A stretch of DNA of 64,000 nt, taken from contig JAGGXI010000038.1 of NCBI GenBank assembly GCA_021163155.1, positions 7,731 through 71,730 of the forward strand. The letters are read 5' to 3'. A program made the position numbers and the translations under genes. Shown here in pieces: positions 12,822-41,269 of this stretch. Numbering within the stretch: the first letter of the stretch is position 1; every line of letters begins with the position of its first letter. Source of the DNA: Candidatus Aerophobota bacterium. GTDB lineage: Bacteria; Aerophobota; Aerophobia; Aerophobales; JAGGXI01. Below the pieces are notes generated by a model. The model did no database searches and was not told where the DNA came from. It was given only the letters and a program-made list of their open reading frames with translations.

Positions 12822-12965
12822 GCTAATTGGCTGTTTAGTGGGTAGGGTGAGCTAATCGCCATTTGCAAAACAAGAGTTAGAGGTAATTGGGAGGCTAAAG
12901 CCTCCCCTACCCTGTAGAGAGCTTTAATAGATTGTCGAATCCTGGGCTAAAGTTAGTAGAGAGTA
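12822..12965. repeat. family-A REP-like intergenic element (core GGGAGGCTAAAGCCTCCCCTACCC plus 'ttgcaaaacaagagttagag') inserted between dppC-like and dppD-like
   Basis: Near-identical copies occur at 40945-41050 and, inverted, at 27720-27792. Confidence 0.8.
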
Positions 12966-15187: not shown

Positions 15188-15955
15188 ATGTCATTTAACA
15201 ATTGTTTAGAGCTTCTAACCAAGCATGAGTATGATAAGGCAAAATTTGATAAAGCAATACTCCCTGTTGGGTCAACGGAATGCCATGGGGAGCATTTACC
15301 CTACGGTACCGATGCTATAGTTGCTCAAAGATTATCTATGGAAATTGCAAAGAATGTAGGGGGTCTACTTGTATTGCCAACCATATCTTACGGAATGAGT
15401 ATGCATTACGCAAAATTCCCTATATCTATAACTCTCTCATCGGGGACTTTAATATCTGTATTGAAAGATGTTCTCTCATCCCTTCTTAATCATAATATTA
15501 AGAAATTAATAATAATTAATGGGCACGATGGTAACATAGCACCAATAGAAATTGCTACAAGAGAATTCAGAGTTATACACCCGGAGATAAAAATATGTGT
15601 ATTAGAAGCATGGTGGATAACAGCTGGCAAGCTTCTTCCCAGGGGAACATTTGCAGTTTGGGATGGACTTGGTCATGCTGGCGAAGGAGAAACTTCAATA
15701 ATGCTTGCTATGGAGCCTGAACTTGTAAAAATGAAATATGCTAAAGGGGTAGTCCCTAATTTACCTTCGGGAGATATTGAAATCAAGTGGCTTTTTGATG
15801 AGTTAACCCCTTACGGTGCTACAGGAGGTCCAGATAAAGCTACTAAAGAAAAAGGCGAAAAAATGGTGAAAGTTCTTGTCGACCATCTGGTAACTTTTAT
15901 TAAAGAAATGGATAAAAATGATTGGAAATATGGAATAGAAAAAGTGGATAAATAA
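15188..15955 (+). CDS. creatininase-family amidohydrolase (creatinine amidohydrolase/ArfB-like)
   Basis: The 'STECHGEHLPYGTD' motif is present. Length is 255 aa. Confidence 0.8.
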   Translation: MSFNNCLELLTKHEYDKAKFDKAILPVGSTECHGEHLPYGTDAIVAQRLSMEIAKNVGGLLVLPTISYGMSMHYAKFPISITLSSGTLISVLKDVLSSLLNHNIKKLIIINGHDGNIAPIEIATREFRVIHPEIKICVLEAWWITAGKLLPRGTFAVWDGLGHAGEGETSIMLAMEPELVKMKYAKGVVPNLPSGDIEIKWLFDELTPYGATGGPDKATKEKGEKMVKVLVDHLVTFIKEMDKNDWKYGIEKVDK

Positions 15956-15999
15956 CTATCTAAGTTTTATTAACTGATTTTTGGGGAGGGGTGATTTAA

Positions 16000-16899
16000 T
16001 TGTTAGTTATGCTCGTGCATGGAGGTGCATCTTCTCAAGTTAAAAATAGAGAAGCAAGAAACCAAGGTATACTAAAGGCTTTAAATGAAGGTTGGGCAAT
16101 TCTTGAGGGAGGTGGGTCCTCCGTAGATGCAGTAGAAGCAGCCATAACAACACTTGAAGATAATAAAAATTTCAATGCTGGTAGAGGTTCCCTGCTTCAA
16201 CTTGATGGTATCGCCAGAATGGATGCTTCTATAATGGAAGGCGAACATAGGAATGCTGGTGCTGTAGCCGCTCTGGAAGGGATTGCGAATCCAATTAAAG
16301 TAGCGAGATTAGTAATGGAAAAAACTCCTCACATATTGTTAGTAGGGAAAAAAGCCAAAGAATTTGCTCTCCACTATAAAGTAAAGGAAATGAAAACTAA
16401 TACAAATAAAAGGACGGAGTATCAGGAGAAAGCTTTGAAGAAAGGAGGAGCTATAGTAAAGATATACAAGGAGATATTTGGCACCGTAGGTGCTGTAGCC
16501 ATAGATTCAAAAAATCTTATTGCTGCCGGTGCTTCTACAGGTGGTATTTTAGGAATGCTGCCTGGTCGGGTAGGAGATAGCCCTCTAATAGGCTGCGGTA
16601 TATATGCCGATAACAGTGTGGGGGGTGTCTCTATGACCGGTACAGGTGAGAAGATAATTAGAATGACTTTAGCTAGAAACATAAACTATGAAATGGCTAA
16701 TGGTTATGAAGCTTTATCTTCTGTAAAAAGAGCTTTGAGAGAAATGTTAATTAGTATTGGAGGTGAAGCTGGAGCTATAGCCATAAAGAAAGACGGAGAC
16801 TTTGGCATAGCGCATACTACAAAATATATGTTTGCTGGATATAAAACAGAAACTGAGGGACCTTATGTTTCTGATAGGTTTAAAATAGTGCAAAAGTAG
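16000..16899 (+). CDS. isoaspartyl peptidase / L-asparaginase (Ntn-hydrolase, plant-type asparaginase family)
   Basis: The 'GTVGAVAID' Thr nucleophile, an 'AGASTGG' motif and 299-aa length fit this family. Confidence 0.8.
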   Translation: MLVMLVHGGASSQVKNREARNQGILKALNEGWAILEGGGSSVDAVEAAITTLEDNKNFNAGRGSLLQLDGIARMDASIMEGEHRNAGAVAALEGIANPIKVARLVMEKTPHILLVGKKAKEFALHYKVKEMKTNTNKRTEYQEKALKKGGAIVKIYKEIFGTVGAVAIDSKNLIAAGASTGGILGMLPGRVGDSPLIGCGIYADNSVGGVSMTGTGEKIIRMTLARNINYEMANGYEALSSVKRALREMLISIGGEAGAIAIKKDGDFGIAHTTKYMFAGYKTETEGPYVSDRFKIVQK

Positions 16900-16907
16900 A
16901 AATTTGA

Positions 16908-17180
16908 TTACTCTGGTATCAAGTAGGGATCTTCTGGAATAGCTATAATTTTGGTATTTTCCCCATATTTAGAAAAAGCTCTCTTAAGCCCTTCTTCCAT
17001 TGAAGCAATAGGAGTAACTAATAAATTTCTTAAAACATTATCATCTATTTCATCTGAATAATACATAATCTCAGCTTTTTTTAAAGTCTTACATATCTCC
17101 TCAACCTGCCATTGGTCAATTACAAAAAATTTAGGATTATTAATTTTATTAAGGAATTCATCAGCACTTTTTGTTTGCAT
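16908..17180 (-). CDS. hypothetical protein (only the distal 91 aa of the 170-aa ORF is likely real)
   Basis: The ORF-track N-terminus (17181-17420) runs through the repeated promoter module and reproduces the peptide 'NNKQFTINFFFVNP'. The same peptide appears at 25792..26022, so that part is an artefact. Confidence 0.3.
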   Translation of the reverse strand: MQTKSADEFLNKINNPKFFVIDQWQVEEICKTLKKAEIMYYSDEIDDNVLRNLLVTPIASMEEGLKRAFSKYGENTKIIAIPEDPYLIPE

Positions 17181-17320
17181 TAATAAATCCTCAAACTCTT
17201 TTTCCTCTATCCTGTTTTTGCATGAAGAGCAGATAATGATTGTTCCTCCTTCTTTAATTGCAGAAGGAAGAATTTCTTCCGAAAAACTTTTTCGCGTCGG
17301 AGGGTTGACAAAAAAAAAAT

Positions 17321-17385
17321 TAATAGTAAACTGTTTATTGTTGACAATTATTATAAAAATGTCTACAACATAAATACTTATTTTA
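17321..17385 (+). promoter_or_regulatory. repeated promoter/operator module 'agggTTGACAaaaaaaaaattaatagtaaactgtttattgTTGACAattattataaaaa' plus GntR-type palindrome ATGTctacaACAT (17359-17371)
   Basis: About 58 bp are identical to 25831-25900. It sits immediately upstream of the GntR-family gene. Confidence 0.55.
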
Positions 17386-17387
17386 AG

Positions 17388-18083
17388 ATGAGGTATTATA
17401 TGCCAATTTTTGAAAAACAAGAACGGTCAACAATGTTTACCAAAACTTTGAAACAGATTAGGAAGGCTATTAAATCCGGGAAGCTAAAGTCGGGAGATCG
17501 GCTTATTGAATCCAGGTTGGCTGAAGAGATGCAAATAAGCCGATTCCCTATACGTGAGGCAATACGCTATTTAGAAAAAGAAGGGCTCGTTGTTACAATC
17601 CCATTTAAGGGAGCTTATGTTGCTAATTTTGGTGAAAGAGATTTAGAGGAAGTTTATACTTTAAGGAGTGCACTCGAAGAACTTGCAGTACGAAAGCTTA
17701 TGGAAAGCCTTGACAGTAAAAAAATTGAGAAATTGGACTCTATCCTCAAAATGATGAAAAAAGCATCACAAGAGGGGAAAATAGATAAGTTGGTTTCGGT
17801 AGACATGAAGTTTCATCGAACGATCTGTGAGTTATCAGATCACCGTAAATTGCTGGATATGTGGCTAACCCTGGAGCATCAATTAAGGACGTTTATTACG
17901 TTGGAAGAACATCTGTATAAGGAACCGGATGCCCTTGTTAAAACTCATTATCCTGTCATTAAGGATATTAAATCTGGAGATATTAAACGTGCAGAGGAAA
18001 GCATTAGGAAGCACCTTTATAATGCATTGAATATAATTAAACATAGTTACATAAAAACATCTGCACATCAAAAAAATAATTAA
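17388..18083 (+). CDS. GntR-family (FadR/FCD subfamily) transcriptional regulator
   Basis: 'ESRLAEEMQISRFPIREAIRYLEKEGLV' forms the HTH, followed by a C-terminal FCD-like helical domain. The true start may be the ATG at 17400 or 17433. Confidence 0.75.
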   Translation: MRYYMPIFEKQERSTMFTKTLKQIRKAIKSGKLKSGDRLIESRLAEEMQISRFPIREAIRYLEKEGLVVTIPFKGAYVANFGERDLEEVYTLRSALEELAVRKLMESLDSKKIEKLDSILKMMKKASQEGKIDKLVSVDMKFHRTICELSDHRKLLDMWLTLEHQLRTFITLEEHLYKEPDALVKTHYPVIKDIKSGDIKRAEESIRKHLYNALNIIKHSYIKTSAHQKNN

Positions 18084-18189
18084 TTTAGAAATACACTATA
18101 AAATCACGAAAAGAATAGAAACAAAAATCAGAGAGAAGACTTTAAATAAAGTTGATATCTATTTTTATTTTACAAAAACAGAGGGGGTT

Positions 18190-19470
18190 ATGATGAGTAA
18201 TTTTCAAATCAGTGATGTCAGAGCAAGAGAAATTATTGATTGTAGGGGTTTTCCTACAGTACAGGTAGATATCTGCGTTGGCGATAAGATGATGGGTAGA
18301 GCAAATGTACCTGCGGGAAGGTCTACAGGGAGTAACGAGGCACATGAGCTTCGAGACGGAGATAAAAATCGTTATAGAGGACTAGGGGTTAAAAAGGCAG
18401 TAAACAATGTTAACGAGGTAATTGGCCCCAGATTGAAGGGATTAGACGTCACAGAGCAGAGGAAGATCGATATGGCGATGATCAGATTAGACGGAACACT
18501 AAATAAGAGCGCATTGGGGGCAAATGCGATTACAGGTGTATCATTAGCTATTGCTCGTGCCGCTGCCAATGTTTGCGGTCTCCCGCTCTATAGATATCTC
18601 AACCCAAACGGATATATTCTTCCAGTGCCTTTTATGAACTTATTAAATGGTGGGAAGCTTACCTCAAACTATCTTGAGATTCAAGAATTCATAATGGTTC
18701 CGGTAGGTGCGAAATCATTTAAAGAAGCACTTCAAATGACCACAGAAATAAATCTTATACTAAGAGATTTAGTGATAGAAAAGTATGGTATTTTAGCAGT
18801 GAATACGGGGGATGAAGGGGGATACGCCACACCGATGCATGGGATAAGAGAGCCTTTTGAATTTATGGCAAAAGCTGTAAAAAAAGCGGGATATGAAGAG
18901 AAGGTTGTATACGCGATGGACTGTGCGAGTACCCACTGGTATGACAAGAAAGAAAAAGTATATAAACTAAATAAAAAAAGTTATGATAGAGAAGAGCTAA
19001 TCAATCTTTATCGAGAATTAATTAACGAGTTTCCTATTATTTCGATGGAAGATCCCTTGGATGAGGATGACTTTGAGGGTTATGCTAAGATCACAAAAGA
19101 TTTAGGAATTCAAATTATAGGTGATGATCTATTTGTCACAAATGTAGAACGTATAAAGGAAGGCGTAAAGAAAAGAGCAGCTAATGCATTACTTCTAAAA
19201 GTGAATCAAGTGGGAACGCTTTCTGAAGCTTTGGATGCTGCAGACTTTGCTTATCGTAATCAATATAAAGTGCAGGTTTCAGAACGTTCTGGAGAAACGG
19301 AGGACTCTTTTATAGCAGATTTGGCAGTGGGATTAAACTGTGGACAAATCAAAACAGGCGCACCAGTACGTGGCGAGAGAACATCGAAATATAACCGTTT
19401 AATACAAATAGAGGAGGAACTAGGGACTTCAGCAATATATGCTGGCACAAAACTTGTAAAGTCTTTCTGA
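18190..19470 (+). CDS. eno: enolase (phosphopyruvate hydratase)
   Basis: 'EIIDCRGFPTVQ', 'STGSNEAHELRDGDK', 'LLKVNQVGTLSEA' and 'SERSGETED' are present. Confidence 0.85.
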   Translation: MMSNFQISDVRAREIIDCRGFPTVQVDICVGDKMMGRANVPAGRSTGSNEAHELRDGDKNRYRGLGVKKAVNNVNEVIGPRLKGLDVTEQRKIDMAMIRLDGTLNKSALGANAITGVSLAIARAAANVCGLPLYRYLNPNGYILPVPFMNLLNGGKLTSNYLEIQEFIMVPVGAKSFKEALQMTTEINLILRDLVIEKYGILAVNTGDEGGYATPMHGIREPFEFMAKAVKKAGYEEKVVYAMDCASTHWYDKKEKVYKLNKKSYDREELINLYRELINEFPIISMEDPLDEDDFEGYAKITKDLGIQIIGDDLFVTNVERIKEGVKKRAANALLLKVNQVGTLSEALDAADFAYRNQYKVQVSERSGETEDSFIADLAVGLNCGQIKTGAPVRGERTSKYNRLIQIEEELGTSAIYAGTKLVKSF

Positions 19471-19514
19471 ATGTGTAGGTTTATTTAAGGGAGAGGAAGA
19501 GCGGAAAAGGTTTA

Positions 19515-19575
19515 TTAGCCTCCCCTACCCAGGCCAAGCACTCTAACAGTTTGCCGAATCTGGGTTAAATATATC
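19515..19575. repeat. family-A REP-like element (inverted orientation) downstream of eno
   Basis: 'agcctcccctacccaggccaagcactctaacagtttgccgaatctgggtt' is the reverse complement of the copy at 27568 and 31746. Confidence 0.75.
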
Positions 19576-19597
19576 ATATGATGGAGGTAAATAGAGT

Positions 19598-20674
19598 ATG
19601 AAGACAAATAATTTTTTAGGACGTGATTGGATTGATGCAGAATTAGATTTTTCAAAAGAAGAATGGGAAACACTTATTGATATTGGTTTGGAGTTAAAGA
19701 AATTGCATGCTCTAAAACAAGATCAAACCCATATATTAAAAGGGAAAACATTGTTCACTATGTTTTTTAATCGGTCTCTCCGCACCAGGAGTACTTTCGC
19801 AACCGGAATTCAGCAGTTAGGTGGTTTTCATGTTAGCTTAGAGCCGGGTAAGACATATACACCCACAACTAAGGGGTATGACATACCCTACAAGACAGAA
19901 AGAATTTCTGATGTAGCTATGATTTTAGATAGAGTTGGCGACGCAATAGCTATAAGGATGTATGGTGAACCAACATATTGGATTTATGGATTTGCAAACC
20001 AGACAATGAAAGAATTTGCTAAATATGCGGAAATCCCAATAATTAACATGGAGGGTGATAAATACCATCCCACTCAAGCTCTGGCAGATATGATTACTAT
20101 AAAAGAAAAATTTGGTACTTTTAAAGGAATCAAGCTAACAATGTCATGGGCTTACTCTGGTTCAATTGCAAAGCCAAGAGCCGTCCCACAATCAACTATT
20201 CTTGCAGCAACAAAGATGGGCATGGATGTAACTCTCGCATATCCAGAAGGCTTTGAGCTCGATACTAAGGTTATCGAACATTGTAGAAAATTTGCAAATG
20301 AAAACAATGGTTCATTCAAAACTACTAATGATTTCAACGAAGGTTTTAAAGATGCACACGTTGTTTATCCTAAATCTTGGGGACCGGTTTCGTGTTTTAG
20401 CTATGTAGATAAAAGTGGAAAAGTTATCAAAAAATATGATCACGAAAAGGCAAGAAAACTAAATGAATCCAACAAAAGCTGGATTACTACTAAAAAACAG
20501 ATGGAAATAATTCATAAAGATGGTATATATATGCATTGCCTCCCGGCTGATAGAGGACAGGAAGTTACAGATGAGGTAATAGATGGTAAAAATTCTGTTA
20601 TAATTGATGAAGCAGAAAATAGACTTCATGCTCATAAAGCAATAATGGCAATGATTATGGGTGGTAGGTTATAA
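19598..20674 (+). CDS. carbamoyltransferase of the OTC/ATC superfamily (YgeW-like, substrate unknown)
   Basis: 'SLRTRSTF' is a variant of the STRTR motif, and the 'HCLPADRGQEV' HCLP motif is present. Length is 358 aa. Confidence 0.7.
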   Translation: MKTNNFLGRDWIDAELDFSKEEWETLIDIGLELKKLHALKQDQTHILKGKTLFTMFFNRSLRTRSTFATGIQQLGGFHVSLEPGKTYTPTTKGYDIPYKTERISDVAMILDRVGDAIAIRMYGEPTYWIYGFANQTMKEFAKYAEIPIINMEGDKYHPTQALADMITIKEKFGTFKGIKLTMSWAYSGSIAKPRAVPQSTILAATKMGMDVTLAYPEGFELDTKVIEHCRKFANENNGSFKTTNDFNEGFKDAHVVYPKSWGPVSCFSYVDKSGKVIKKYDHEKARKLNESNKSWITTKKQMEIIHKDGIYMHCLPADRGQEVTDEVIDGKNSVIIDEAENRLHAHKAIMAMIMGGRL

Positions 20675-20953
20675 ATATCAAAAAAGAATAACAGCTCAAT
20701 GAAAATTAAATTACGAATGTTTTTAAATATATATTTTCCCCTTTTATTTTAGTTTGTGGAATTTTATCTCCTGGGTTTATCCGTCCCCCTCATCTTCTTA
20801 ATGTAATTCGCCAGGAAAGTATTAGGTTGAGGATGCAATTCATAATTCCTTAAATAAAGGTCTTTTGACGAGATAAAAACAGAAGATACGATGGGCAAGT
20901 ATAAAATATGAGAATAAACGAAGACCTTTTTTAAAGAGAGAATTGTTGAAAAA

Positions 20954-21002
20954 TTATTTTTTTTAGAAACTTTCAGAGAAAGATAAATTAAATTATTTAT
21001 TA
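20954..21002 (+). promoter_or_regulatory. conserved upstream motif 'aaagagagaaNtgttgaaaaatta...ttttagaaactttcagaRaaa' (copy 1)
   Basis: The same motif occurs at 26329-26380 upstream of dctP. Confidence 0.4.
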
Positions 21003-21025
21003 TTAGAAAGGAATAAGGGCAAATT

Positions 21026-22381
21026 ATGTACATTAAAAACAGAGAGAAACTTACCTCACATGGTTATAAAAAAGGAAGGGAGGCAGCGATAGATATTATT
21101 GAATATACATTACATGCTATAGATCCTTATATAGCTACAAAAAATCTTGTTAAACTTTGTGGAGAAACCTTAACCGTTGGCCCTCTGAACTTTGACTTAT
21201 CCCAAAGAGGTAACATTTATGTTCTTGGCGCAGGGAAGGCTACCTTTCCCATCGCTAAAGCTCTCGAAGAGATTTTAGGGGGAAAAATTGCGAAAGGTCT
21301 TATAATCGTTAAGAAAGGTCAAGATGGGACTCTAAAAAAGATTAAGATAAGAGAGGCTTCTCATCCACTGCCTGGCAAAGAAGGGTTTAATGCAGCAAAA
21401 GAGATAATGAAAATAGCTAAACAAACACAAAAAAAAGATATTGTTTTTTGTACTATTACAGGAGGAAGTTCAGCCTTAGCTCCTCTTCCTGTCTCAAGCA
21501 TCAGTTTAAAAGAGAAAAAACAAATTAACGAGTTGCTTTTAACCAGCGGCGCTACAATAAGAGAAATCAATACAGTCAGAAAGCATCTTTCAAATATTAA
21601 GGGGGGGAAACTTGCTCTTTCCATATTTCCTGCAGAAATTATTAATTTAACAGTTTCTGATGTTACAGGGGACCCCTTAGATTACATAACTGGTCCAACT
21701 GTTCCAGATACTTCAAATTTTTCAGAAGCAATCTCTGTTCTAAAAAAATATAATTTATGGGATAAACTACCAAAATCGGTTATAAACTATTTACAAAATG
21801 CTACTCCAGAGTTAGAAACTCCTAAAAATTTTGGGAAATTCAGCTCCCTTGTCCACTCTTTTATTTTAATAAAAAGTGGAGTAGTATGTGAATCAGCGGC
21901 TGAAAAGGCAAAAGAACTCGGCTTTACCCCTATGATTCTAACTACTATGCTCGAAGGAGAGAGTAAAGAAGTAGGCATAGTATTGACAGGAATTGCTAAA
22001 GAAATCATACATCATAATAGGCCATTAATTCCTCCCTGTGCACTTATTGCGGGAGGAGAAACTACTGTCAAAATCAATAATGAACATGGTAAGGGAGGGC
22101 CGAATCAAGAATTTGCTTTAAGTGCCGCTTTACAACTCAGTTCCTATACCAACGTCACTGTTGCAGCAATTGATACAGATGGAACAGATGGACCAACTAA
22201 TATAGCCGGGGGACTTGTAGATAATTCCACAATGGAAAGGGCTAAAGAGAAGGGCTTTAATATATTTGAGTGTCTAGTAAAACATGACACTTCTCGTGTC
22301 TTACTCTCATTGGACGATGCAGTTATAACCAAAGCTACAGGAACTAACGCAAATGATTTTAAAATACTATTAGTGAGTTAA
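21026..22381 (+). CDS. glycerate 2-kinase (MOFRL/DUF4147 family)
   Basis: The 451-aa product has the 'GAGKA' and 'TGGSSA' motifs typical of GckA/TtuD-type glycerate kinase. Confidence 0.8.
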   Translation: MYIKNREKLTSHGYKKGREAAIDIIEYTLHAIDPYIATKNLVKLCGETLTVGPLNFDLSQRGNIYVLGAGKATFPIAKALEEILGGKIAKGLIIVKKGQDGTLKKIKIREASHPLPGKEGFNAAKEIMKIAKQTQKKDIVFCTITGGSSALAPLPVSSISLKEKKQINELLLTSGATIREINTVRKHLSNIKGGKLALSIFPAEIINLTVSDVTGDPLDYITGPTVPDTSNFSEAISVLKKYNLWDKLPKSVINYLQNATPELETPKNFGKFSSLVHSFILIKSGVVCESAAEKAKELGFTPMILTTMLEGESKEVGIVLTGIAKEIIHHNRPLIPPCALIAGGETTVKINNEHGKGGPNQEFALSAALQLSSYTNVTVAAIDTDGTDGPTNIAGGLVDNSTMERAKEKGFNIFECLVKHDTSRVLLSLDDAVITKATGTNANDFKILLVS

Positions 22382-22503
22382 CTCCAGTTCTTCGATAATA
22401 AAAGAAATTATACCATCTATTCCTTTATAAATTCCTAAATTATTAAGGTTTAAATCATAAAAGAATAAGAAAAAATAAAGAAAAAACAAGGAGAGTAATT
22501 AGT

Positions 22504-23664
22504 ATGAAGATTACGGGTTATATGAGGTCGGATGGTTCAGTGGGAGTCAGAAATTATATTGCTATTCTTCCGTCAGTTGGCTGTGCAAACGATTTCGTTT
22601 TAAAATTAGGAAATATTTACCCAAATGTTAAACTTTTAACACACCGTCAGGGATGTAGTCAAGTGGGTTTGGATAACGACCAAACAGTTCGTACTCTTAT
22701 TGGTTTGGGGAAAAATCCTAATATTGCAGGTGTACTAGTAGTTGGTTTGGGTTGCGAAACAATCAAGGCAGAATATATTGCAAAGGAAATATCAAAAACG
22801 AAAAAGATGGTCGAGTGTTTGGTTTTAAATAATGAAAATGGGGTTGCGTCTGCACTTTCAAAAGGGGCAAGATTGTTGAACCCAATGTTACAAGATGCTT
22901 CAAAAATGAAAAGAACCACCTGTGATATGGAACAGTTAATTATTGGTGTTAAATGTGGTCTCTCAGATTCAACATCTGGTATCACCTCCAATCCCGCTAC
23001 AGGCATTGTATCTGACATGGTTATTGAATCTGGGGGCACTGTCATTTTTGGAGAAACCCCTGAAATTATTGGAGTTGATCATATATTGGCTAAAAGGTCA
23101 GCAAATCAGGATGTTGTAAATAAATTACATCGTTTAATAAATGATTGCAAAGAGAGAGTAAAGGCATCAGGCGGAAATATACAAGAAGCAAACGTTGCTC
23201 CTGGTAATATAGCTGGTGGAATTACAACTATTGAAGAGAAATCTATTGGAGCTATTACAAAAGGAGGAAGAAAGACTTTGCAAGATGTACTTAAATATGG
23301 AGAGAAGCCAAAAGGAAAAGGCTTATTTTTTATGGATAGCCCTGGTCGAACTCCAGAAGCACTAACCGGCTTAATTGCAGCTGGAGCTCAGATTATCATT
23401 TTTTCAACTGGAGGAGGATCACCAGGAGGATCTCCTATTTCTCCAGTAATAAAAGTTACAGGAAACCGAAATACAGCACAACGATTAAAGGATATAATTG
23501 ATGTAGATGTCAGCTCAATAATTATGGGTAAGGAAACTTTAAAAGAGGCAGGTATAAAAATTTTCAAAAAGCTATGTAACGTAGCTAGTGGAGAAGTGAC
23601 AAAAGCAGAGATTCTTGGATATGGTTTAATAAGTATTTGGAATATATCTCCTTTATCTGGATAA
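22504..23664 (+). CDS. UxaA/GarD-family sugar-acid dehydratase, large (C-terminal) subunit
   Basis: The 386-aa protein resembles the altronate/galactarate dehydratase catalytic domain. The matching SAF subunit is encoded immediately downstream. Confidence 0.65.
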   Translation: MKITGYMRSDGSVGVRNYIAILPSVGCANDFVLKLGNIYPNVKLLTHRQGCSQVGLDNDQTVRTLIGLGKNPNIAGVLVVGLGCETIKAEYIAKEISKTKKMVECLVLNNENGVASALSKGARLLNPMLQDASKMKRTTCDMEQLIIGVKCGLSDSTSGITSNPATGIVSDMVIESGGTVIFGETPEIIGVDHILAKRSANQDVVNKLHRLINDCKERVKASGGNIQEANVAPGNIAGGITTIEEKSIGAITKGGRKTLQDVLKYGEKPKGKGLFFMDSPGRTPEALTGLIAAGAQIIIFSTGGGSPGGSPISPVIKVTGNRNTAQRLKDIIDVDVSSIIMGKETLKEAGIKIFKKLCNVASGEVTKAEILGYGLISIWNISPLSG

Positions 23665-23780
23665 GAAATAGATTAAGAAATATTAGTTTACATTTAAACG
23701 CCTATGATATAATTGGTCGAGAATTCTGTTCGAAAAATGTAAAAAAATGAGTTTTTAGCTATAGTAGCTGTAAAAATAGC

Positions 23781-23812
23781 ATAGTTTGCCGAATCTGGGT
23801 TAAAAATAATGA
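23781..23812. repeat. partial family-A repeat arm ('catagtttgccgaatctgggtt')
   Basis: It matches the arm of the 19515 copy. Confidence 0.5.
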
Positions 23813-23821
23813 TGGAGGATA

Positions 23822-24106
23822 TTGATGGAGGAAAAAAATGCAATTATGATGGAGGAAAAAGATAATGTAGCTACAGTTCTCTCTGCAGTAGAGAAAAACG
23901 ATAAAGTTAAGATTATACTGGGCAAGAATCATTTTACTGTACTGGCCAAGGAATCAATTCCTTTTGGGCATAAAGTTGCTTTAAGAAAAATAGCAAAAGG
24001 GGAAAATATCATTAAATATGGAGAAGTAATAGGTCGTGCAAGAGATGAAATTAAAAAAGGAACTTATATACATGTACACAACACACAAAGCATTGCTGGC
24101 AAATAA
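23822..24106 (+). CDS. SAF-domain small subunit of UxaA/GarD-family dehydratase
   Basis: The 94-aa product resembles the SAF/FlgA-like N-domain. The start is ambiguous because 'atgatggaggaaaaa' is tandemly duplicated. Confidence 0.55.
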   Translation: MMEEKNAIMMEEKDNVATVLSAVEKNDKVKIILGKNHFTVLAKESIPFGHKVALRKIAKGENIIKYGEVIGRARDEIKKGTYIHVHNTQSIAGK

Positions 24107-24376
24107 TCATCAATATTAAGTAATATATTTTACTGATATTCTGCATTAAGAGTGTATGAAAATAAATAAGTATTACAATAAAGGTATGGTTTAATCTTCT
24201 GTGAAATTGTCTATTTCTTTCTCATAATTATTATACACTTTTATTTGGCAATTGCCCTCTCATACAAGGATAACGTAAATGTGCAGTAATAAATTATGGG
24301 AGATCTGAACGCTCACATAAAGGATAGTGTCGAAAGATTAATCTTTTTTTAGGGGCTTTCCTAGTAGGAGAAGAAT

Positions 24377-25651
24377 ATGAATATTATCCTTCCTTATGGA
24401 AAAGATCGAGTCTCCGTCTCCTTTGACAGGGAACGCTTAGCGTTTATCTTAAATTTAAGTGAAGCATCTGGGCTAACTGACCTGAAAGTAGAAGTTGAAA
24501 GAGCACTTCAAAATCCGATTGGTACAAGTGGATTAAAGCATTTAGTAAAAGCAAACGATTCAGTAGTAATTCTTGTAGATGATAACACTCGGTTAACTCC
24601 TGTGAAAAGGATTATTCCCTATGTATTAAGTGAGTTGCTTAAAGTCGGAGTAAGTGAAAAAATGATTACTATATTAGTAGCCGCTGGCACGCACCGGGAT
24701 ATGACAGATTTAGAATTACGTGAGAAACTAGGTGCTAATATCTGCGATCGTTTTAAGATAGAGCAGCATAATTATAGAGATAAAAAACATCTCAGAAAGG
24801 TAGGAGAAACCGATGGCATTCCGATAGCGGTGAATGCTACTGCGGTTGAGGCAGATTTTCTGATGGGGATTGGAAATATTATTCCACACTGTGATTTCGG
24901 TTTTTCTGGTGGTGCAAAGATAGTAGAGCCAGGAATTTGCGGTTATACAGCTACTGCTTTTACTCATACACTATGTCAAATTGGTGATGAGATTCCATTA
25001 GGAAAAGTAGAGAACCCCGCTCGACTTAAAGCAGAAGCGATGGCGAAAAAGGCAGGACTGGCATTTATATTAAATGTAGTGCTCAATTCTAAAAATGAAA
25101 TAGTATCTATAGTGGCAGGAGATCCAGTTAAAGCACACCGTGAAGGAGTTAAAAAATCACGGTCTATTTATGGAGCATCCTTTTCGGAACCTGCAAAAAT
25201 CCTTATCTGCAGTGCCTATCCAGCAGATAAGGATTTCTGGCAAGCAGCTAAAGGCCTTGCAGCAGCCTATTTTGCTTGTAAGAAAGATGGTATAATTATA
25301 CTTACCTCACCATGTCGTGAGGGAGTTGCTGATAAAGTTCACTTACAATGGACGAATTATTGGTTAAAAATGACCTTTGCTGAGATTTGTAAGAAGTTAA
25401 ATAAGGCTGATTACGAAGATGAGGAGTTGGACTTTATAGCTGGTGGGGGAGCTGCGATGATTGCTCGAATTCGTGAACATGCTACTGTAATCCTTGTGTC
25501 AGATGGGATATCGGAAAAGGATACTGCGCGATTAGGATTTTTGAAAAGTCCCTCACTTCAGGAAGCGACTGATTTTGCTCTTCGCAGATTCAGAGATGGT
25601 TCTGTGGGTGTTATTCCAATGGGCGGAGACACATTGCCCCTGCGAATTTAG
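24377..25651 (+). CDS. LarA-like protein (nickel-pincer-dependent 2-hydroxyacid racemase/epimerase family, DUF2088)
   Basis: The 424-aa product has LarA-like size and an N-terminal DUF2088-like region. This call has low-moderate confidence. Confidence 0.55.
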   Translation: MNIILPYGKDRVSVSFDRERLAFILNLSEASGLTDLKVEVERALQNPIGTSGLKHLVKANDSVVILVDDNTRLTPVKRIIPYVLSELLKVGVSEKMITILVAAGTHRDMTDLELREKLGANICDRFKIEQHNYRDKKHLRKVGETDGIPIAVNATAVEADFLMGIGNIIPHCDFGFSGGAKIVEPGICGYTATAFTHTLCQIGDEIPLGKVENPARLKAEAMAKKAGLAFILNVVLNSKNEIVSIVAGDPVKAHREGVKKSRSIYGASFSEPAKILICSAYPADKDFWQAAKGLAAAYFACKKDGIIILTSPCREGVADKVHLQWTNYWLKMTFAEICKKLNKADYEDEELDFIAGGGAAMIARIREHATVILVSDGISEKDTARLGFLKSPSLQEATDFALRRFRDGSVGVIPMGGDTLPLRI

Positions 25652-25830
25652 TATAGGGTTTTTGTTAAAAAGTGTAAAAGTTTTAGGAAGAGAAGAATTA
25701 GGAATAAAGCCGAAAGAGAGATAAAAAACAAGTAAATTATTAGAGACCTCTGGGTATATTATGCTATAGATAGCATAATATTGTAACATAACTATGCCAC
25801 CGAAATAGTGTTAAAAGTGATTTGATACAG

Positions 25831-25906
25831 AGGGTTGACAAAAAAAAAATTAATAGTAAACTGTTTATTGTTGACAATCATTATAAAAAATGTCTGTAAT
25901 AGACAT
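25831..25906 (+). promoter_or_regulatory. second copy of the repeated promoter/operator module plus palindrome ATGTCTgtaatAGACAT (25890-25906)
   Basis: The sequence is identical to 17321-17385 except for 1-2 nt. It points toward the dctPQM TRAP genes. Confidence 0.55.
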
Positions 25907-26328
25907 GGTTCAATCTTCTCTGAAGTGCAATAGTTCTTTATTGTAATTATTCCACACTTTTCTCTCATTTGGTAATAGTAAACCGGGCTGAAAAGAAGTA
26001 GAAGGTCTAATCTGAGTTTCAAACCGATACCAACTGAGAGAAAAATTGAGGTAATATACAGGGTAGTAAAAAGAGAAGTTAAGGAAAAAGTTAAATAAGT
26101 AAGACAGAAAATTTTTTAAAAAAAAGGAACAGGGAAGGAAGTTGAATCCATCTGAGGGAAAGATAGAATTCGTAAAGTACCCTATTACGGGTTTGAAAAG
26201 GTATATAGAAATGGCGACCATAAAAGAAAACCAAAGGGGTTCTGGTAAGGAGAAGGTTAAAAATAAAGCCGAGCAAGGAGGTGAAAATATAAGAAGGTTA
26301 TTAGCCGGGAAACAAAGGAAAGCATCTT

Positions 26329-26380
26329 AAAGAGAGAAGTGTTGAAAAATTAACCTCTCTTTTTAGAAACTTTCAGAAAA
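26329..26380 (+). promoter_or_regulatory. conserved upstream motif (copy 2) immediately upstream of dctP
   Basis: It matches 20954-21002. Confidence 0.4.
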
Positions 26381-26442
26381 AAATGAACCATGTCTTTATG
26401 TTTATTATGCGTAAAAAATAAATAAATACAAGGAGATTTATT

Positions 26443-27525
26443 ATGAGGAAGATTCTAACAATGTTAGGTATTGTTGTTATGATAATCTTTACTTTCGGCC
26501 TGGTTTTTGCCGAAGGCCAAGAGGTTAGCAAGAAAGATCCCATAGTTATTAATATGGGTAACATTGATACTCCCTTTGAGCTTAATTTGAGCAATACAAA
26601 TGGTCAATTCTCCTCTACAGACATAAAATGCAGAGCATTTAAGAAGATTCTAGAAGCAAAAAGCCATGGAAGATTTAAAGTGAAAATTTATCCTAATGGT
26701 CAATTGGGAAATCAACAAGAAATGATGGAAATGAACAGAGAAGGATCTCTACAAATGACTGGATGCTCAGCCTCACCTATTGTTAGATATACCAAAGAGT
26801 TTATGGCATTTCAGATTCCATATATTTTTAAAGACGTAAATGTAGCATTAAAAGCAATGAATGGCCCTTTAGGAGAAGAGTTTAATGAGTTATTTGTGGA
26901 AAAAACTGGTATAAGATTTCTTGCTTGGGGGTTTGAGGGTTATTTCAATGTTGGTACAGTGAATAAGAAAGTTGTTGTTCCTTCTGATATGAAAGGCTTA
27001 AAGATAAGAAGTGGTATGTCTGCAATTAATGTGCAGATATTTAAACTTCTTGATGCAATTGCAACCCCAATACCTTTTACTGAAATTTATACCTCATTGC
27101 AGCAAAGAGTCATTGATGGAGTGTCAACACCAACAGGGTTTCATTATGCATTGAATTTATATGAGCAGGAAAAATATTTAAATATGGCTGATATTCTTTT
27201 TTCCTGGTCTCCAATCTCTATTAATGAAAAGTTTTATCGTTCTTTATCTAAAGAAGATCAATACCTCATTAAAGATGCTGCAGTAGAAGCTATGAAGACC
27301 TTTCAAGGTATGGTATTATGGGGACGTAGTCTGTGGATGGAGGAATTAAAAAAACAAGGTATGGAAGTAATAATCCCTACGCCAGAACAAAAGGCTTTAT
27401 GGATAAAAACTCTTAGAGATCCTATGATAAAATGGGCCAAAAAACAAATAGGTCCAGAATGGGTGGATAAGGTATTTAATGCTAGTAAGGAAGCAGAAGA
27501 AAAATTATACGGTTCTACCCAATAG
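26443..27525 (+). CDS. dctP: TRAP transporter substrate-binding protein (DctP family)
   Basis: The 360-aa product has a signal peptide, and DctQ and DctM follow it. Confidence 0.85.
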   Translation: MRKILTMLGIVVMIIFTFGLVFAEGQEVSKKDPIVINMGNIDTPFELNLSNTNGQFSSTDIKCRAFKKILEAKSHGRFKVKIYPNGQLGNQQEMMEMNREGSLQMTGCSASPIVRYTKEFMAFQIPYIFKDVNVALKAMNGPLGEEFNELFVEKTGIRFLAWGFEGYFNVGTVNKKVVVPSDMKGLKIRSGMSAINVQIFKLLDAIATPIPFTEIYTSLQQRVIDGVSTPTGFHYALNLYEQEKYLNMADILFSWSPISINEKFYRSLSKEDQYLIKDAAVEAMKTFQGMVLWGRSLWMEELKKQGMEVIIPTPEQKALWIKTLRDPMIKWAKKQIGPEWVDKVFNASKEAEEKLYGSTQ

Positions 27526-27567
27526 ATATCGAAGTTAAAGCTGTTAAAATATTCATATTTATCATAG

Positions 27568-27792
27568 ATTTGGCAAACTATTAGAGTGCTTGGCCTGGCT
27601 ATTGGAAAACCAATAAACCTCTTCCACCCTTCCTCTCCCTTAAGGGGGGTATAACCCTCACCTTAGTCCTCCCCCGTAAAGGGAGAGGGGAAGCGGAAGA
27701 AGTTCTGCTGGGTGAGGGTGAGGGTGACCCAGCCTCCCAATAGCCTCTAACTCTTGTTTTGCAAAGGGTGATTGAAGTCGCCCTACCCATTA
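27568..27792. repeat. full-length composite family-A REP-like element with a GC-rich internal hairpin
   Basis: It contains both arms ('tggcaaactattagagtgcttggcctgg' ... 'cagcctcccaatagcctctaactcttgttttgcaaa'). The ORF 27599..27790(-) lies inside it and is spurious. Confidence 0.8.
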
Positions 27793-27867
27793 AAAAGAGT
27801 ATTTTTGATTAGGGAAAAACCCTTTGAAAAATATAAGAATTAGACCTAATGCCATGTTTTGGAATTA

Positions 27868-27908
27868 ACTTTAGCTAATATTATTCAAATTGCCGAATCT
27901 AGGTTTAT
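27868..27908. repeat. partial family-A arm 'ttagctaatattattcaaattgccgaatctaggttt'
   Basis: It is near-identical to 31836-31872. Confidence 0.6.
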
Positions 27909-27946
27909 ATGTGAACAATTTTAGATAAAGGTGATTAGTAAAAACC

Positions 27947-28429
27947 ATGAATAAAATATTTTACTGGATTTGCAAAGTAGTTACTATCTTTTTAGTTCCA
28001 TTAATGACGATTGTTGTCTTTACACAGGTTATCATGCGTTATGTTTTTTCATCTCCCTTTCCTTGGGCTGAGGAGTTATCCAGGTATATTTTAGTATGGA
28101 TTTCATGCTTTGGAGCCGCTGTTGGAGTAAGAGAAGGGGTGCATGTAAGCATACTTACATTAAACAAACGATTGAAAGGGTGGATTAAATCTTTTGTAAC
28201 GTTTGCCATCCATTTTCTAGAAATAGGTTTCTTTACTGTCACTACAATCTCAGGTACCTTTCTTTCCTTAGGTATGTGGAACATAGAATCTTCAGCCATG
28301 AGGATACACATGACATTGCCTTATATTGCAATTCCTATCAGCTTTTTTTTTATGATGATATTTAGTTTTGAGTCATTGATTAGAGATATAAAAAATATCT
28401 TTTTAATAAATAACAAAACTGGAATTTAG
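27947..28429 (+). CDS. dctQ: TRAP transporter small permease (DctQ)
   Basis: A 160-aa protein with 4 TM helices, lying between dctP and dctM. Confidence 0.8.
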   Translation: MNKIFYWICKVVTIFLVPLMTIVVFTQVIMRYVFSSPFPWAEELSRYILVWISCFGAAVGVREGVHVSILTLNKRLKGWIKSFVTFAIHFLEIGFFTVTTISGTFLSLGMWNIESSAMRIHMTLPYIAIPISFFFMMIFSFESLIRDIKNIFLINNKTGI

Positions 28430-28439
28430 GAGAAATACC

Positions 28440-29717
28440 TTGCTGATACTGTTTTTCATAATATTTTTACTTGCCATAGTGATAGGTTTACCCGTAGCAT
28501 GGGCTCTGGGAGTAAGCGGTCTTATAGCTATGCCTCTTATGGACTTGCCTCTCAGTATAGTTCCTAGAAAAATTTTTATGGGTATGAACATATATGTACT
28601 GATGTGTATACCATTCTTCATCTTAACTGGAGAAATAATGGCTAGAGGAGGACTCACAAAGAGATTATTGAATTTTGCAGTTCTTCTAGTTGGTAGAATA
28701 AAAGGGGGCTTATCTTTAGCAAATGTTTTGGCAAGTATGCTATTTGGCGGAATTACGGGTTCGGCGGTTGCTGATGCAAGTGCATTGGGTTCTATAGAAA
28801 TACCTATGATGGTAGAGAATGGGTATGATGCAGATTTTTCTGCAGCGATTACTTCTGCTTCTGCATGTATAGGGCCTATAATTCCTCCGAGTATACCAGT
28901 AGTTATATATTCAATGGCAGTTGGTGGTGGAGTTTCAATAGGTGCTTTATTTGCAGCAGGTATAGTCCCTGGTATTTTGGTGGGAGTGGCTCTGATGTTA
29001 GCTTGCTATATAATTTCAAAAATAAGAGATTATCCAAGAAGAGAGCAAAGAGTAGCAATTAAAGATCTTTTAATTGGCTTTAAAGATGCATTTTTAGCAC
29101 TTATGACTCCCATTATTATTTTAGGTGGTGTAATAGGAGGTGTATTCTCACCTACAGAAGCCGGGGCAATAGCTGTTGTATATTCTTTTATCATTTCATT
29201 TTTTGTTTATCACGAATTAAAACTTTCTGATTTGCCAAGTTTGTTTTTACGAAGTGGTAGAACCTCTGCAATGGTAATGATCATAATTGGTACGTCCAGC
29301 ATCTTTGGGATGGTCATTGCGTATGGGCAAGTAGGATTAAAACTTGGAGAGTTTTTAAAACCAATGGGTTATTATGGTTTCATCCTGTCGGTAAATATTA
29401 TCTTACTTATTGTAGGTGGTTTCATGGATAATAATCCTGCCATAATAATTTTAGCTCCAATTTTTGCACCTATAGCAGCCAGGCTGGGAATAAATCCCAT
29501 TCATTTTGGTATTATTTTTGTCATGAATCTTATTATTGGTTTAATTACTCCTCCACTGGGGGAAGTTCTTTTTGTTGCTGCTCCACTTGCAGGCATATCA
29601 TTCGAAAAGGTTACAAAGGCAGTTTTGCCATTTATGATCATAGAAATTGGAGTTCTCTTGTTAGTAAGTTATATACCTTCTATTTCGCTATGGGCACCTA
29701 AAATACTTGGTTTTTAA
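28440..29717 (+). CDS. dctM: TRAP transporter large permease (DctM)
   Basis: The 425-aa multi-TM protein has a DctM-like N-terminus ('GLPVAWALG'). The start is a TTG. Confidence 0.85.
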   Translation: MLILFFIIFLLAIVIGLPVAWALGVSGLIAMPLMDLPLSIVPRKIFMGMNIYVLMCIPFFILTGEIMARGGLTKRLLNFAVLLVGRIKGGLSLANVLASMLFGGITGSAVADASALGSIEIPMMVENGYDADFSAAITSASACIGPIIPPSIPVVIYSMAVGGGVSIGALFAAGIVPGILVGVALMLACYIISKIRDYPRREQRVAIKDLLIGFKDAFLALMTPIIILGGVIGGVFSPTEAGAIAVVYSFIISFFVYHELKLSDLPSLFLRSGRTSAMVMIIIGTSSIFGMVIAYGQVGLKLGEFLKPMGYYGFILSVNIILLIVGGFMDNNPAIIILAPIFAPIAARLGINPIHFGIIFVMNLIIGLITPPLGEVLFVAAPLAGISFEKVTKAVLPFMIIEIGVLLLVSYIPSISLWAPKILGF

Positions 29718-29795
29718 TTAAAAATGTTATTTAGATTTACGGGGAAAAAATTATAAACAAAAACTTAAATTATATAAAGTAAATGGAGGAAAATT

Positions 29796-30653
29796 ATGGA
29801 AGTAAAAAATACCGTATGTCTTAACTCTACTGGTAAACTTAAACGTGTTCTACTATGTAAGCCAAAATATTACAAGCTTCTTCCCATTAGTGATGTAGCT
29901 AGGGATCTCGCTGATAAAGGAGTTGAGCAGAACAGGAATGAGGCATTAAAGATACACAAGGAGTTAGAAAATGTTTTTATTGATTTGGGCACTGATATTA
30001 GCTGGGTGGAACCAACTGAAGGATTTGGATGGCAAATATCAACTAGAGATACAGGGGTTAATACGCCCAAGGGAATGTTAATAGGGAGATTTCGTTATGC
30101 TGAGCGCAAAGGAGAAGAGATTTGCGTAAGGAAAACATATGAGAAGTTAGGAGAAAAAGTAGTAGGGCAAATTACCAGGGGTTGTGTAGAAGGAGGTGAT
30201 TGTTTTTTAATAAATGAAAACACACTAATTATAGGAAATGGTAATCGCAGTACCTATTCTGGATTTAAGAATGCAAAAGAGATTTTGAATCCCTATGGAA
30301 TACGAGTTTTTGTTGTTGAATTTCTTTCTAAGTGGAATCACTTAGACATGATTTTTTCACCTGTTGCTGAAAAATTAGCATTAGTTTGTGAAGATGCGGT
30401 CCCAGATTATCTAATTGGGCTTCTTGATGCACTTGGATGGGAGATTATAAGGCTTCCAGGTGAATATGCATTTAAGGGTGAGATTAACATGGCTGCTCTT
30501 GGAGATGGAAAAGTACTTTCATTTCGAGGAAACAGGATTAACAAGATGCTTAAAGCAAGAGGATTAGAGGTTTATGATCCAGAGTTTAGCTTTTTTGTGG
30601 CTGCTGGTATTGGACCGCATTGTGCGACTCTTGAGCTAGAAAGGGAGCCTTAA
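29796..30653 (+). CDS. pentein-superfamily guanidino/ureido hydrolase (DDAH/amidinotransferase/arginine-deiminase-like)
   Basis: The C-terminal catalytic Cys motif 'GIGPHCATLELE' is present. Length is 285 aa. Confidence 0.6.
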   Translation: MEVKNTVCLNSTGKLKRVLLCKPKYYKLLPISDVARDLADKGVEQNRNEALKIHKELENVFIDLGTDISWVEPTEGFGWQISTRDTGVNTPKGMLIGRFRYAERKGEEICVRKTYEKLGEKVVGQITRGCVEGGDCFLINENTLIIGNGNRSTYSGFKNAKEILNPYGIRVFVVEFLSKWNHLDMIFSPVAEKLALVCEDAVPDYLIGLLDALGWEIIRLPGEYAFKGEINMAALGDGKVLSFRGNRINKMLKARGLEVYDPEFSFFVAAGIGPHCATLELEREP

Positions 30654-30732
30654 ATTTGGTTTCATAATTGTTCTGATATATTTCTATAACCTCAATATAA
30701 AATTTGAAATTAAAGATTGAGAGGTATTTAGT

Positions 30733-31746
30733 ATGGAAAGAAAGGAAATTTCGAATTTAAATAATTTAATTTGGTTGTTAGATGATGTTTTTGATTCACA
30801 TTTAATAGAAAAGATAAGGGAGATTTTAAATAAACATGGTTACAATTTGATTACTACGAGGGGTAACAATTTTGAGCATGATTACACTAAATATGCTAAG
30901 AGTGTAAAAGGTATTTTACTACAGGTTGGTTTTCCATTAGGTGAAGAGGCCATAAAAGGACTAAAATCTTGTAAGATTATAGCGGTTACCGGTATAGGTA
31001 TTGATGATCTTGATATAAATGCAGCTACAAAATATAGGGTTGTTGTTACTAATGTGCCTGTTTTTTGTGTTGATGAAGTTTCTGATCATGCTTTAGCTCT
31101 AATTTTAGCACTTAATAGGCGATTACCAGATTGTCAAAATATGACTAAAAGTGGTTTATGGGACGCTGTTAATCTTAAATCCATAAGAAGACTCAAAGGC
31201 CAGGTTCTTGGAATAATTGGATTTGGTAAAATTGGAAAATTAGTTGCTAAAAAGGCAAAATGTTTTGGTTTACAAGTTAAAGTATATGATCCATATATAT
31301 CTAAATCAGAAGTTAACAGCTTAAAAATCAAAGATGTAGGGTTTGATGAATTAATAAGCACTGCTGATTACATCTCTTTACATTTACCTCTAAATAAAGA
31401 AACATATCATATGATAAATTCAAAGTTTTTTAACTCTATGAAAAAAACAGCTTATCTAATAAATGTTTCTAGAGGGGAAATAATAGATGAATCTGCATTG
31501 ATAAATGCATTGAAAACAGAAAGAATTGCAGGAGCTAGTCTGGATGTTTTATCTCATGAACCTCCTGAAATAACTAATCCATTACTATCAATGAAAAATG
31601 TTATAGTTACTCCTCATTCAGCGTTTATTTCTGAAGATTCATTGAAGAATCTCATAGAGATTTCCACAAAATCTATTATTGACTTTTTTGAAGGGAAGAA
31701 ACCTGAAAATATTATTAATCCTCAGGTTTTAAAAAATTATAGATGA
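30733..31746 (+). CDS. D-isomer-specific 2-hydroxyacid dehydrogenase (glycerate/hydroxypyruvate reductase-like)
   Basis: The NAD-binding motif 'GIIGFGKIGKLVAKKA' is present, with a catalytic His near the C-terminus. Confidence 0.85.
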   Translation: MERKEISNLNNLIWLLDDVFDSHLIEKIREILNKHGYNLITTRGNNFEHDYTKYAKSVKGILLQVGFPLGEEAIKGLKSCKIIAVTGIGIDDLDINAATKYRVVVTNVPVFCVDEVSDHALALILALNRRLPDCQNMTKSGLWDAVNLKSIRRLKGQVLGIIGFGKIGKLVAKKAKCFGLQVKVYDPYISKSEVNSLKIKDVGFDELISTADYISLHLPLNKETYHMINSKFFNSMKKTAYLINVSRGEIIDESALINALKTERIAGASLDVLSHEPPEITNPLLSMKNVIVTPHSAFISEDSLKNLIEISTKSIIDFFEGKKPENIINPQVLKNYR

Positions 31747-31872
31747 ACCCAGATTCGGCAAACTGTTAGAGCGCTTAGTCTGAGTAGAGGAGGCCAATAA
31801 ATTTCTTCCGCTCCCTTGAGGTGAGGATTGTGTTTTAGCTAATATTATTCAAATTGCTGAATCCAGGTTTAA
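31746..31872. repeat. family-A REP-like element downstream of the dehydrogenase
   Basis: 'cccagattcggcaaactgttagagcgcttagtctg...ggccaataaa...ttagctaatattattcaaattgctgaatccaggttt'. Confidence 0.75.
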
Positions 31873-38495: not shown

Positions 38496-38523
38496 AATTT
38501 ACCCCCTTTTTTATTTTGAATTT

Positions 38524-41250: not shown

Positions 41251-41269
41251 TCCCTTTAGAAAGAATTCT

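Follow-up and report, generated by a model that had tools for sequence, protein, structure and literature searches.

A putative promoter-operator module occurs twice, at a GntR-family regulator gene and upstream of TRAP transporter genes, in a Candidatus Aerophobota bacterium

A 60-nt intergenic module occurs twice in a 64,000-nt stretch of DNA from a Candidatus Aerophobota bacterium (contig JAGGXI010000038.1 of assembly GCA_021163155.1, positions 7,731 to 71,730 of the forward strand; the whole stretch is called the window below). Copy 1 lies at 17300-17359 (+), 41 nt upstream of the start codon of gntR, which encodes a GntR-family regulator, and copy 2 lies at 25830-25889 (+), 554 nt upstream of the start codon of dctP, in front of the dctPQM genes of a tripartite ATP-independent periplasmic (TRAP) transporter. 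After analyzing both copies together with the orthologous regions of other genomes, we consider that the module is probably a promoter combined with a GntR operator, which is reused at gntR and 0.55 kb before dctPQM. More precisely, a sigma-70-type promoter and the operator for the neighboring FCD-type GntR regulator would be fused in it. This reading builds on direct observations of the repeat, the domains of the encoded proteins, the conservation of promoter and palindrome in orthologues and the gene neighborhoods.

The two copies agree at 59 of 60 positions, which is their best ungapped match, and the sole mismatch is a T at 17349 in copy 1 against a C at 25879 in copy 2. When a 1-nt difference in an A-run is allowed, the match continues through ATGTCT to 17365 and 25896; beyond this extension similarity ends abruptly on either side, and the DNA flanking the module is unrelated between the copies. 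Exactly two occurrences of the 44-mer that runs from the first TTGACA to TTGACAAT were counted in the window, against 0 expected from 100 shuffles, and no third copy of the module was found in the 64 kb with up to 3 mismatches allowed. Copy 1 spans -100 to -41 relative to the gntR start codon; for copy 2 the range is about -613 to -554, counted from the dctP start codon. An earlier prediction made from the same DNA (the original prediction) had described an exact duplication of ~58 bp starting at 17321. The repeat stands, but it is not exact, owing to the one mismatch, which that prediction had itself marked by a dot, and the start of the first copy was ~20 nt off, the string beginning at 17301. 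Its remark that the repeat produces identical artefactual peptides in the open reading frame (ORF) track was confirmed by a shared minus-strand peptide (IVNNKQFTINFFFVNP).

Independent metagenome assemblies (L002 and L089/L090) also contain the two copies and show the same T/C difference between them; another contig carries copy 2 (L091), and two more carry copy 1 (L001 and L003). The repeat is no assembly artefact. The strain represented by L089-L091 is 99.3-99.7% identical to the window over the module region, and because the T/C difference is kept in both strains, the duplication is older than their split. Gene conversion between the copies is unsupported, as the copy-specific difference is preserved in both strains. 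Apart from one A-to-T substitution in the spacer A-run of L089, copy 2 is unchanged between the two strains. This run, an A10 homopolymer between the predicted -35 and -10 boxes, is found in both copies (17311-17320 and 25841-25850); no length polymorphism that would indicate phase variation was seen among the strains and assemblies compared. One ORF extends across copy 1, and its product has the sequence of NCBI protein J7K55_02385. Scans of genome and metagenome contigs with exact 24-mers gave no match, and a degenerate module pattern gave 70 matches in the metagenome contigs, none of which adjoins a gntR homologue and all of which are treated as chance. These scans are uninformative on further copies, because they missed contigs that bear the module or the pattern (L002, L089-L091 and L005).

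In copy 1, the promoter scan and the orthologous promoters point to a -35 box TTGACA at 17305-17310 (+) and a -10 box TAAACT at 17327-17332 (+), the latter within the operator-like half-site GTAAACTGT, and the transcription start is predicted near 17339. The corresponding boxes of copy 2 would lie at 25835-25840 and 25857-25862 (+), followed by the predicted operator core at 25867-25878 (+). The combination TTGACA-16-TAAACT, with its A-rich 16-nt spacer, scores 10/12 and is among the top scores of the window scan at both copies. Four orthologous loci whose regulators are 82-85% identical (L004-L007) have a related module in the same place upstream of gntR; therefore, the module is the native gntR promoter region. 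In these loci, TTGACA is followed after 16 nt by TAAACT, TAAATT or TTAACT (the last in L004) and then by GTTTATTGT. More widely, a spacing of 16-17 nt between TTGACA and TAAAYT is seen in the orthologous promoters of L005, L007, L010, L011, L013-L016 and L027.

The predicted GntR operator region of copy 1 covers 17326-17355 (+) and reads GTAAACTGT TTATTGT TG ACAATTATT; within it, a perfect inner core ATTGT-TG-ACAAT is present at 17337-17348 in copy 1 and at 25867-25878 in copy 2. Sites of the form T.GT-NN-AC.A are known for FadR-type GntR proteins, and a palindrome of the type T.GT-N(0-3)-AC.A was found in silico at both modules. In Desulfobacterales, whose orthologous regulators are 41-64% identical, the palindrome GTAAATTGT-TG-ACAGTTTAC, that is, GTAAAYTGTNNACARTTTAC, is exact in 10 loci and always lies directly upstream of gntR or of eno-glxK-gntR; TTGACA stands there 17 nt before TAAATT, and this -10 box forms the left arm of the palindrome. 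In Chloroflexi orthologues (30-35% identity), TATAAT is followed by GTCRATTGTCGACARTCKAC. The distant orthologues give the consensus GTAAAYTGT-NN-ACARTTTAC, which was derived in this analysis from the exact sites in the 10 orthologue loci and has no literature source, and ATTGT-NN-ACAAT is the part common to three phyla. At up to 3 mismatches the 20-mer consensus matches the window twice (0.19 expected), and the inner-core pattern AYTGTNNACART also matches twice (0.25 expected), in each case at the two modules. Compared with the Desulfobacterales palindrome, the Aerophobetes-type modules contain ~7 extra bases (TTATTGT), so that two overlapping operator registers would result.

The gene that follows copy 1, gntR (17400-18083, +), encodes a protein of the FadR subfamily, as the original prediction had stated: Pfam finds an N-terminal winged-helix GntR domain (PF00392, E = 3.5e-15, residues 18-74) and a C-terminal effector-binding FCD domain (PF07729, E = 5.5e-23, residues 84-206). 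We found 860 homologues of this regulator. No NCBIfam equivalog reached its cut-off, the best being phnR_burk with 114 bits against a cut-off of 271 bits. The placement of the second copy upstream of the leader of the dctPQM genes was likewise borne out by Pfam, with dctP at 26443-27525 (DctP, 6e-62), dctQ at 27947-28429 (DctQ, 1.7e-31) and dctM at 28440-29717 (DctM, 3.2e-115), all on the plus strand.

From these observations we infer promoter activity, binding, repression, a ligand and a direction of copying. The predicted operator overlaps the -10 box and the transcription start, an arrangement expected of a repressor-blocked promoter, and the sequence that GntR would cover is ATTGTTGACAAT. 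A GntR dimer bound to the palindrome would block RNA polymerase, and a ligand, probably a hydroxy- or sugar-acid imported by the TRAP system or its metabolite, would release the repressor. Copy 1 heads the gene set gntR-eno-otc-glxK-uxaA-larA and is presumably the autoregulated gntR promoter. In this lineage, 8.5 kb of genes part gntR from dctPQM, and through the second cassette the transporter would remain controlled by GntR.

The gene neighborhoods of relatives bear on this last step. In L004 and L007, gntR is directly followed by dctM-P-Q of a different TRAP family (DctM 42% identical), and two further loci, in which DctP is 47-54% identical to that of the window, have the orders gntR-glxK-dctPQM (L092) and gntR-eno-glxK-dctPQM-prpD-dctPQM (L094) with one promoter-operator each, at the cluster head. 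The TRAP transporter is a recurrent member of the neighborhood of this regulator. Because its genes are co-directional with gntR behind a single promoter-operator in distant relatives, co-regulation is plausible. The original prediction had proposed that GntR regulates both its own gene and the TRAP genes; the comparative context agrees with this proposal, its choice of operators is unsupported, and the regulation itself stays a prediction.

The proposed arrangement resembles that of several characterized repressors. Autoregulated GntR repressors of the FadR subfamily with T.GT-N-AC.A operators include Bacillus subtilis GntR, UxuR/ExuR, LldR and PdhR, and the operator of E. coli DgoR is TTGTAGTACAA. 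Similar to these proteins, the regulator in the window combines a winged helix-turn-helix GntR domain with an FCD domain, its predicted palindromic operator has a TTGT-NN-ACAA core overlapping the -10/+1 region of its own promoter, and it stands at the head of a cluster for the catabolism and transport of hydroxy- or sugar-acids. Unlike them, it has no NCBIfam equivalog at cut-off, and its operator consensus comes from the comparison made here. The transporter genes also resemble regulated DctPQM-type TRAP operons, since dctP, dctQ and dctM are co-directional beside a transcription factor and catabolic enzymes. However, the classical DctPQM of Rhodobacter is under the two-component system DctSR, whereas control by a GntR/FCD repressor through a duplicated promoter cassette and a long leader is suggested here.

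The surroundings of the two copies bear on the history of the region. Immediately left of copy 1, a LarA-like remnant (16908 to ~17290, -) retains only the C-terminal domain (Pfam LarA_C profile positions 35-146); Lar_N and the first ~34 LarA_C profile positions are absent, and its reading frame runs into the module, and therefore the left edge of copy 1 is a rearrangement breakpoint. This LarA_C-only fragment is called as a 90-aa gene in other assemblies and is truncated exactly at that edge. The missing Lar_N half was not found elsewhere in the window, no close full-length homologue of the fragment was found, and it is only distantly related to the full-length LarA encoded at 24377-25651. 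At the other copy, the relevant comparison is with L087, a relative with the order SAF-larA-[235 nt]-dctP-X-dctQ and no module. After larA, the window is longer by ~552 bases, which consist of a unique segment of ~100 nt, the module, a non-coding element termed X and ~150 nt; either an insertion in the lineage of the window or a deletion in that of L087 is possible. The flanks of these extra bases (25652-25725 and 26204-26285) look like diverged direct repeats, but we do not rely on this, as their alignment score exceeds the shuffles by only ~2.9 standard deviations and does not reach the highest shuffled score. A search by tblastn for remains of gntR in the 540-nt dctP leader gave only noise.

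Element X (25901-26050, +, ~150 nt) is homologous to L088 1300-1440 and L087 3205-3320. In the window it precedes dctP, whereas L087 and L088 have it in the dctP-dctQ spacer; in L005 (~555-600) and L006, the module before gntR is likewise followed by the first ~45 nt of X. It contains a conserved long hairpin with an 11-bp stem (TTTTCTCTCA...TGAGAGAAAA) and a folding z-score of -2.3, as judged from three sequences that show no covariation; Rfam gave no match at gathering score in the window and none at E <= 1 in 25700-26500, which includes the dctP leader and element X. A further element, Y (TTAAAGAGAGAA.TGTTGAAAAATTA...TTTTTAGAAACTTTCAGA), forms the proximal segment upstream of dctP (26327-26387, +) and has a second copy at 20931-20987 upstream of glxK; it lies 56 nt from the dctP start codon and 39 nt from that of glxK. 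The segment before dctP is conserved in L087 and L088, the latter of which also has a partial repeat of Y after X. As a sigma-70 promoter element Y is unconvincing, its TTGAAA-to-TAGAAA spacing being 16 nt at dctP and 12 nt at glxK. X and Y thus occupy different spacers in sister lineages, and intergenic mosaicism seems common in this clade.

As to the direction of copying, copy 1 would be the ancestral gntR promoter and copy 2 its paralogue, but we commit to neither copy as the source. On its left (GATTTGAT) as well as on its right (the start of X), copy 2 is flanked by sequence similar to the region before gntR in L005; copy 1 matches that region only over the module and abuts the LarA breakpoint. 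For these reasons, the gntR end of the cluster may be the rearranged one. We tentatively entertain, as a doubtful possibility, that the cassette was copied between intergenic spacers by an unknown short-patch mechanism and that the regulon grew by duplication of a cis-element. If so, the cassette would be one of several intergenic modules (the promoter-operator module, X and Y) that are shuffled in sister lineages. Through RecA-mediated recombination between the two 60-bp direct repeats, the 8.5-kb catabolic block might also be lost or amplified.

Several observations weigh against the promoter-operator assignment. The predicted operator in the window departs from the 20-bp consensus at 3 positions in one register and at 5 in the second; it is degenerate outside the perfect 12-bp inner core, including in its outer right arm, and the consensus comes largely from other phyla, with regulators that are 30-60% identical. 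Copy 2 is separated from dctP by an unusually long non-coding leader (25890-26442, +, 553 nt), in which the conserved segment Y could carry a working dctP promoter. Additionally, L087, whose DctP is 86% identical, has larA and dctP without the module between them, and so the second copy is unneeded for dctP expression in that lineage. The original prediction had placed the operators elsewhere, in a palindrome downstream of each copy; in this version, the module would hold two -35 boxes or tandem promoters. Palindromes do exist at both places, ATGTCTACAACAT at 17359-17371 (+, of the form ATGT-N5-ACAT) and ATGTCTGTAATAGACAT at 25890-25906 (+, ATGTCT-N5-AGACAT), the second straddling the junction between the module extension and element X. 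Both match the loose pattern T.GT..AC.A and would overlap a -10 position if the second TTGACA served as the -35 box; strains L001 and L089 have in place of the first ATGTTTACAACAT, a perfect 5-3-5 palindrome (ATGTT-TAC-AACAT), and at a similar place L004 and L007 contain small palindromes of other sequence that also start with ATGT. However, the downstream palindromes differ between the two copies in sequence and spacing, are unconserved in the orthologous promoters and are lacking in L005 and L006, whereas the predicted operator, which is conserved, sits inside the module. Among random 30-nt windows of this sequence, 47% contain a palindrome with 4-bp arms and 5% one with 6-bp arms, and palindrome 1, with its 4-bp arms, is at chance level; the right arm (GACAT) of palindrome 2 is made up by the first bases of the separately repeated and unrelated element X, as found in L087 and L088. 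FadR-type sites usually have N0-3 spacers, and the 5-nt spacers here are longer. Finally, the second TTGACA, which would serve as a -35 box, is instead the center of the ATTGT-TG-ACAAT palindrome conserved across three phyla. We therefore regard the downstream palindromes as improbable operators. A minor role, such as that of a hairpin in the 5′ untranslated region, is conceivable; this region folds no better than shuffles.

A different explanation denies copy 2 a present role at the TRAP genes: copy 2 would be a rearrangement relic of a former gntR promoter context, and transcription of dctPQM would come from larA by read-through or start at a proximal promoter within segment Y. The flanks that copy 2 shares with L005, the truncated LarA that marks the gntR end of the cluster as rearranged, the order in L087, the 554 nt before dctP and the shifting positions of X and Y all fit this explanation, and yet we consider it unlikely. 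The -35 box, the -10 box and the operator core of copy 2 are intact, and a single base distinguishes the copies within the module, whose surroundings are unrelated in sequence; the only change in copy 2 between the two strains is the spacer substitution described above, and no terminator-like site was detected on the plus strand from copy 2 to dctP. An unselected relic would be expected to decay, as the LarA fragment did. Least of all do we expect the module to be the end of a mobile element, such as a miniature inverted-repeat transposable element (MITE) or an insertion sequence (IS) fragment, or one of a pair of attL/attR-type repeats bounding an 8.5-kb island. Direct repeats do flank an 8.5-kb gene block, dispersed intergenic repeats are abundant (families D1, D2 and I3-I5), and one copy lies at a gene-truncation breakpoint. 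Nevertheless, the window holds only the two copies even at 3 mismatches, a reading of the module flanks showed neither terminal inverted repeats nor a target-site duplication, and no integrase or transposase is encoded between the copies, all seven genes there specifying the regulator or metabolic enzymes. Moreover, the block contains gntR-eno-glxK, which are ancestral neighbors in other phyla, and the module is orthologous to gntR promoters in relatives, which makes a mobile origin highly unlikely.

We hold to the reading of the module as a reused promoter and operator, and its closest published counterparts are the putative mobile promoters, which are defined by at least 80% identity over at least 50 nt, a position upstream of non-paralogous genes within one genome and the absence of an IS (PMC3575422). 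A survey counted more than 4000 families of such promoters, most of them pairs, in 1362 genomes (PMC3575422; Matus-Garcia, Nijveen and van Passel 2012). The statement that exact promoter duplication is uncommon was thus overstated, given the number of reused-promoter families that the survey reports. Here, the identity is 59/60, and the downstream genes, for a GntR regulator and a DctP solute-binding protein, are non-paralogous. The survey covered -150 to -50 relative to the gene start; copy 1 lies largely inside this range and copy 2 outside it, the range being a survey criterion and not a biological one. In contrast to the putative mobile promoters, the copied piece can here be assigned to a specific regulator, comprises promoter and operator, and can be traced to the gntR promoter. 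The duplicated cassette is ordinary promoter reuse, within what is known of putative mobile promoters and autoregulated GntR operons, and leaves the current understanding of bacterial gene regulation unchanged. What it offers is a regulon hypothesis for Candidatus Aerophobetes, an uncultivated phylum, in which one GntR/FCD repressor would act on two promoter-operator cassettes and a TRAP transporter, and the cluster appears to funnel carbon through glycerate 2-kinase and enolase. It also offers a predicted operator consensus for an uncharacterized group of GntR orthologues in Desulfobacterales, Chloroflexi and Aerophobetes, and a putative example of regulon maintenance by promoter copying, in which a gene set stays in its regulon after the cluster has expanded.

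The genes around the two copies are as follows, all on the plus strand. An asparaginase gene (16000-16899) precedes the LarA-like remnant. Downstream of gntR are genes for an enolase (18190-19470), an OTCase-like carbamoyltransferase (19598-20674), a glycerate 2-kinase-like protein of the DUF4147/MOFRL type (glxK, 21026-22381), the large subunit (GD_AH, 22504-23664) and the SAF small subunit (23822-24106) of a split UxaA/GarD-like dehydratase and the full-length LarA-like racemase (24377-25651). The catabolic block from 18190 to 25651 and gntR, which lie between the module copies, are co-directional. Beyond dctM follow genes for an ADI/DDAH-like enzyme (29796-30653) and a D-2-hydroxyacid dehydrogenase (30733-31746). 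Orthologues of eno, glxK, the uxaA-like genes, larA and the 2-hydroxyacid dehydrogenase gene cluster with gntR orthologues in other phyla. A recurrent, uncharacterized gene set accompanies this GntR group, in the window at 15188-31746 and in L008, L092, L094 and L095; it comprises enolase, MOFRL glycerate kinase, the split UxaA-like dehydratase, LarA-like racemase, 2-hydroxyacid dehydrogenase and TRAP transporters, as well as the OTCase-like and ADI/DDAH-like enzymes, with carbamate kinase in relatives. This set suggests an unknown pathway feeding glycerate into 2-phosphoglycerate and phosphoenolpyruvate, possibly with a carbamoyl-phosphate-linked gain of ATP.

Other repeats were seen in the window. 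A family resembling repetitive extragenic palindromes (REP) or MITEs, with 50-90-nt repeats in both orientations, is intergenic and mostly found right after genes (12845-12896, 19485-19573, 23783-23808, 27555-27643, 27731-27773, 31746-31813, 38522-38586 and 40955-41040); one copy is in the dctP-dctQ spacer, where relatives have element X. A core of ~55 nt (AAATCTCTGATTTCGCAGATAAAAGTCCAAATTACACAGAT) occurs in five copies, at 41209-41257 (-), 42504-42587, 42730-42813, 47979-48062 and 58687-58770, in spacers beside housekeeping genes that are unrelated to one another, for an EamA transporter, MetRS, mreB/mreC and a type II secretion/type IV pilus (T2SS/T4P) ATPase, and may be another reused promoter or a dispersed repeat. 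An inverted repeat pair of ~95 nt (I1 and I2), 95% complementary, lies 50 kb apart at 7713-7881 and 58214-58391.

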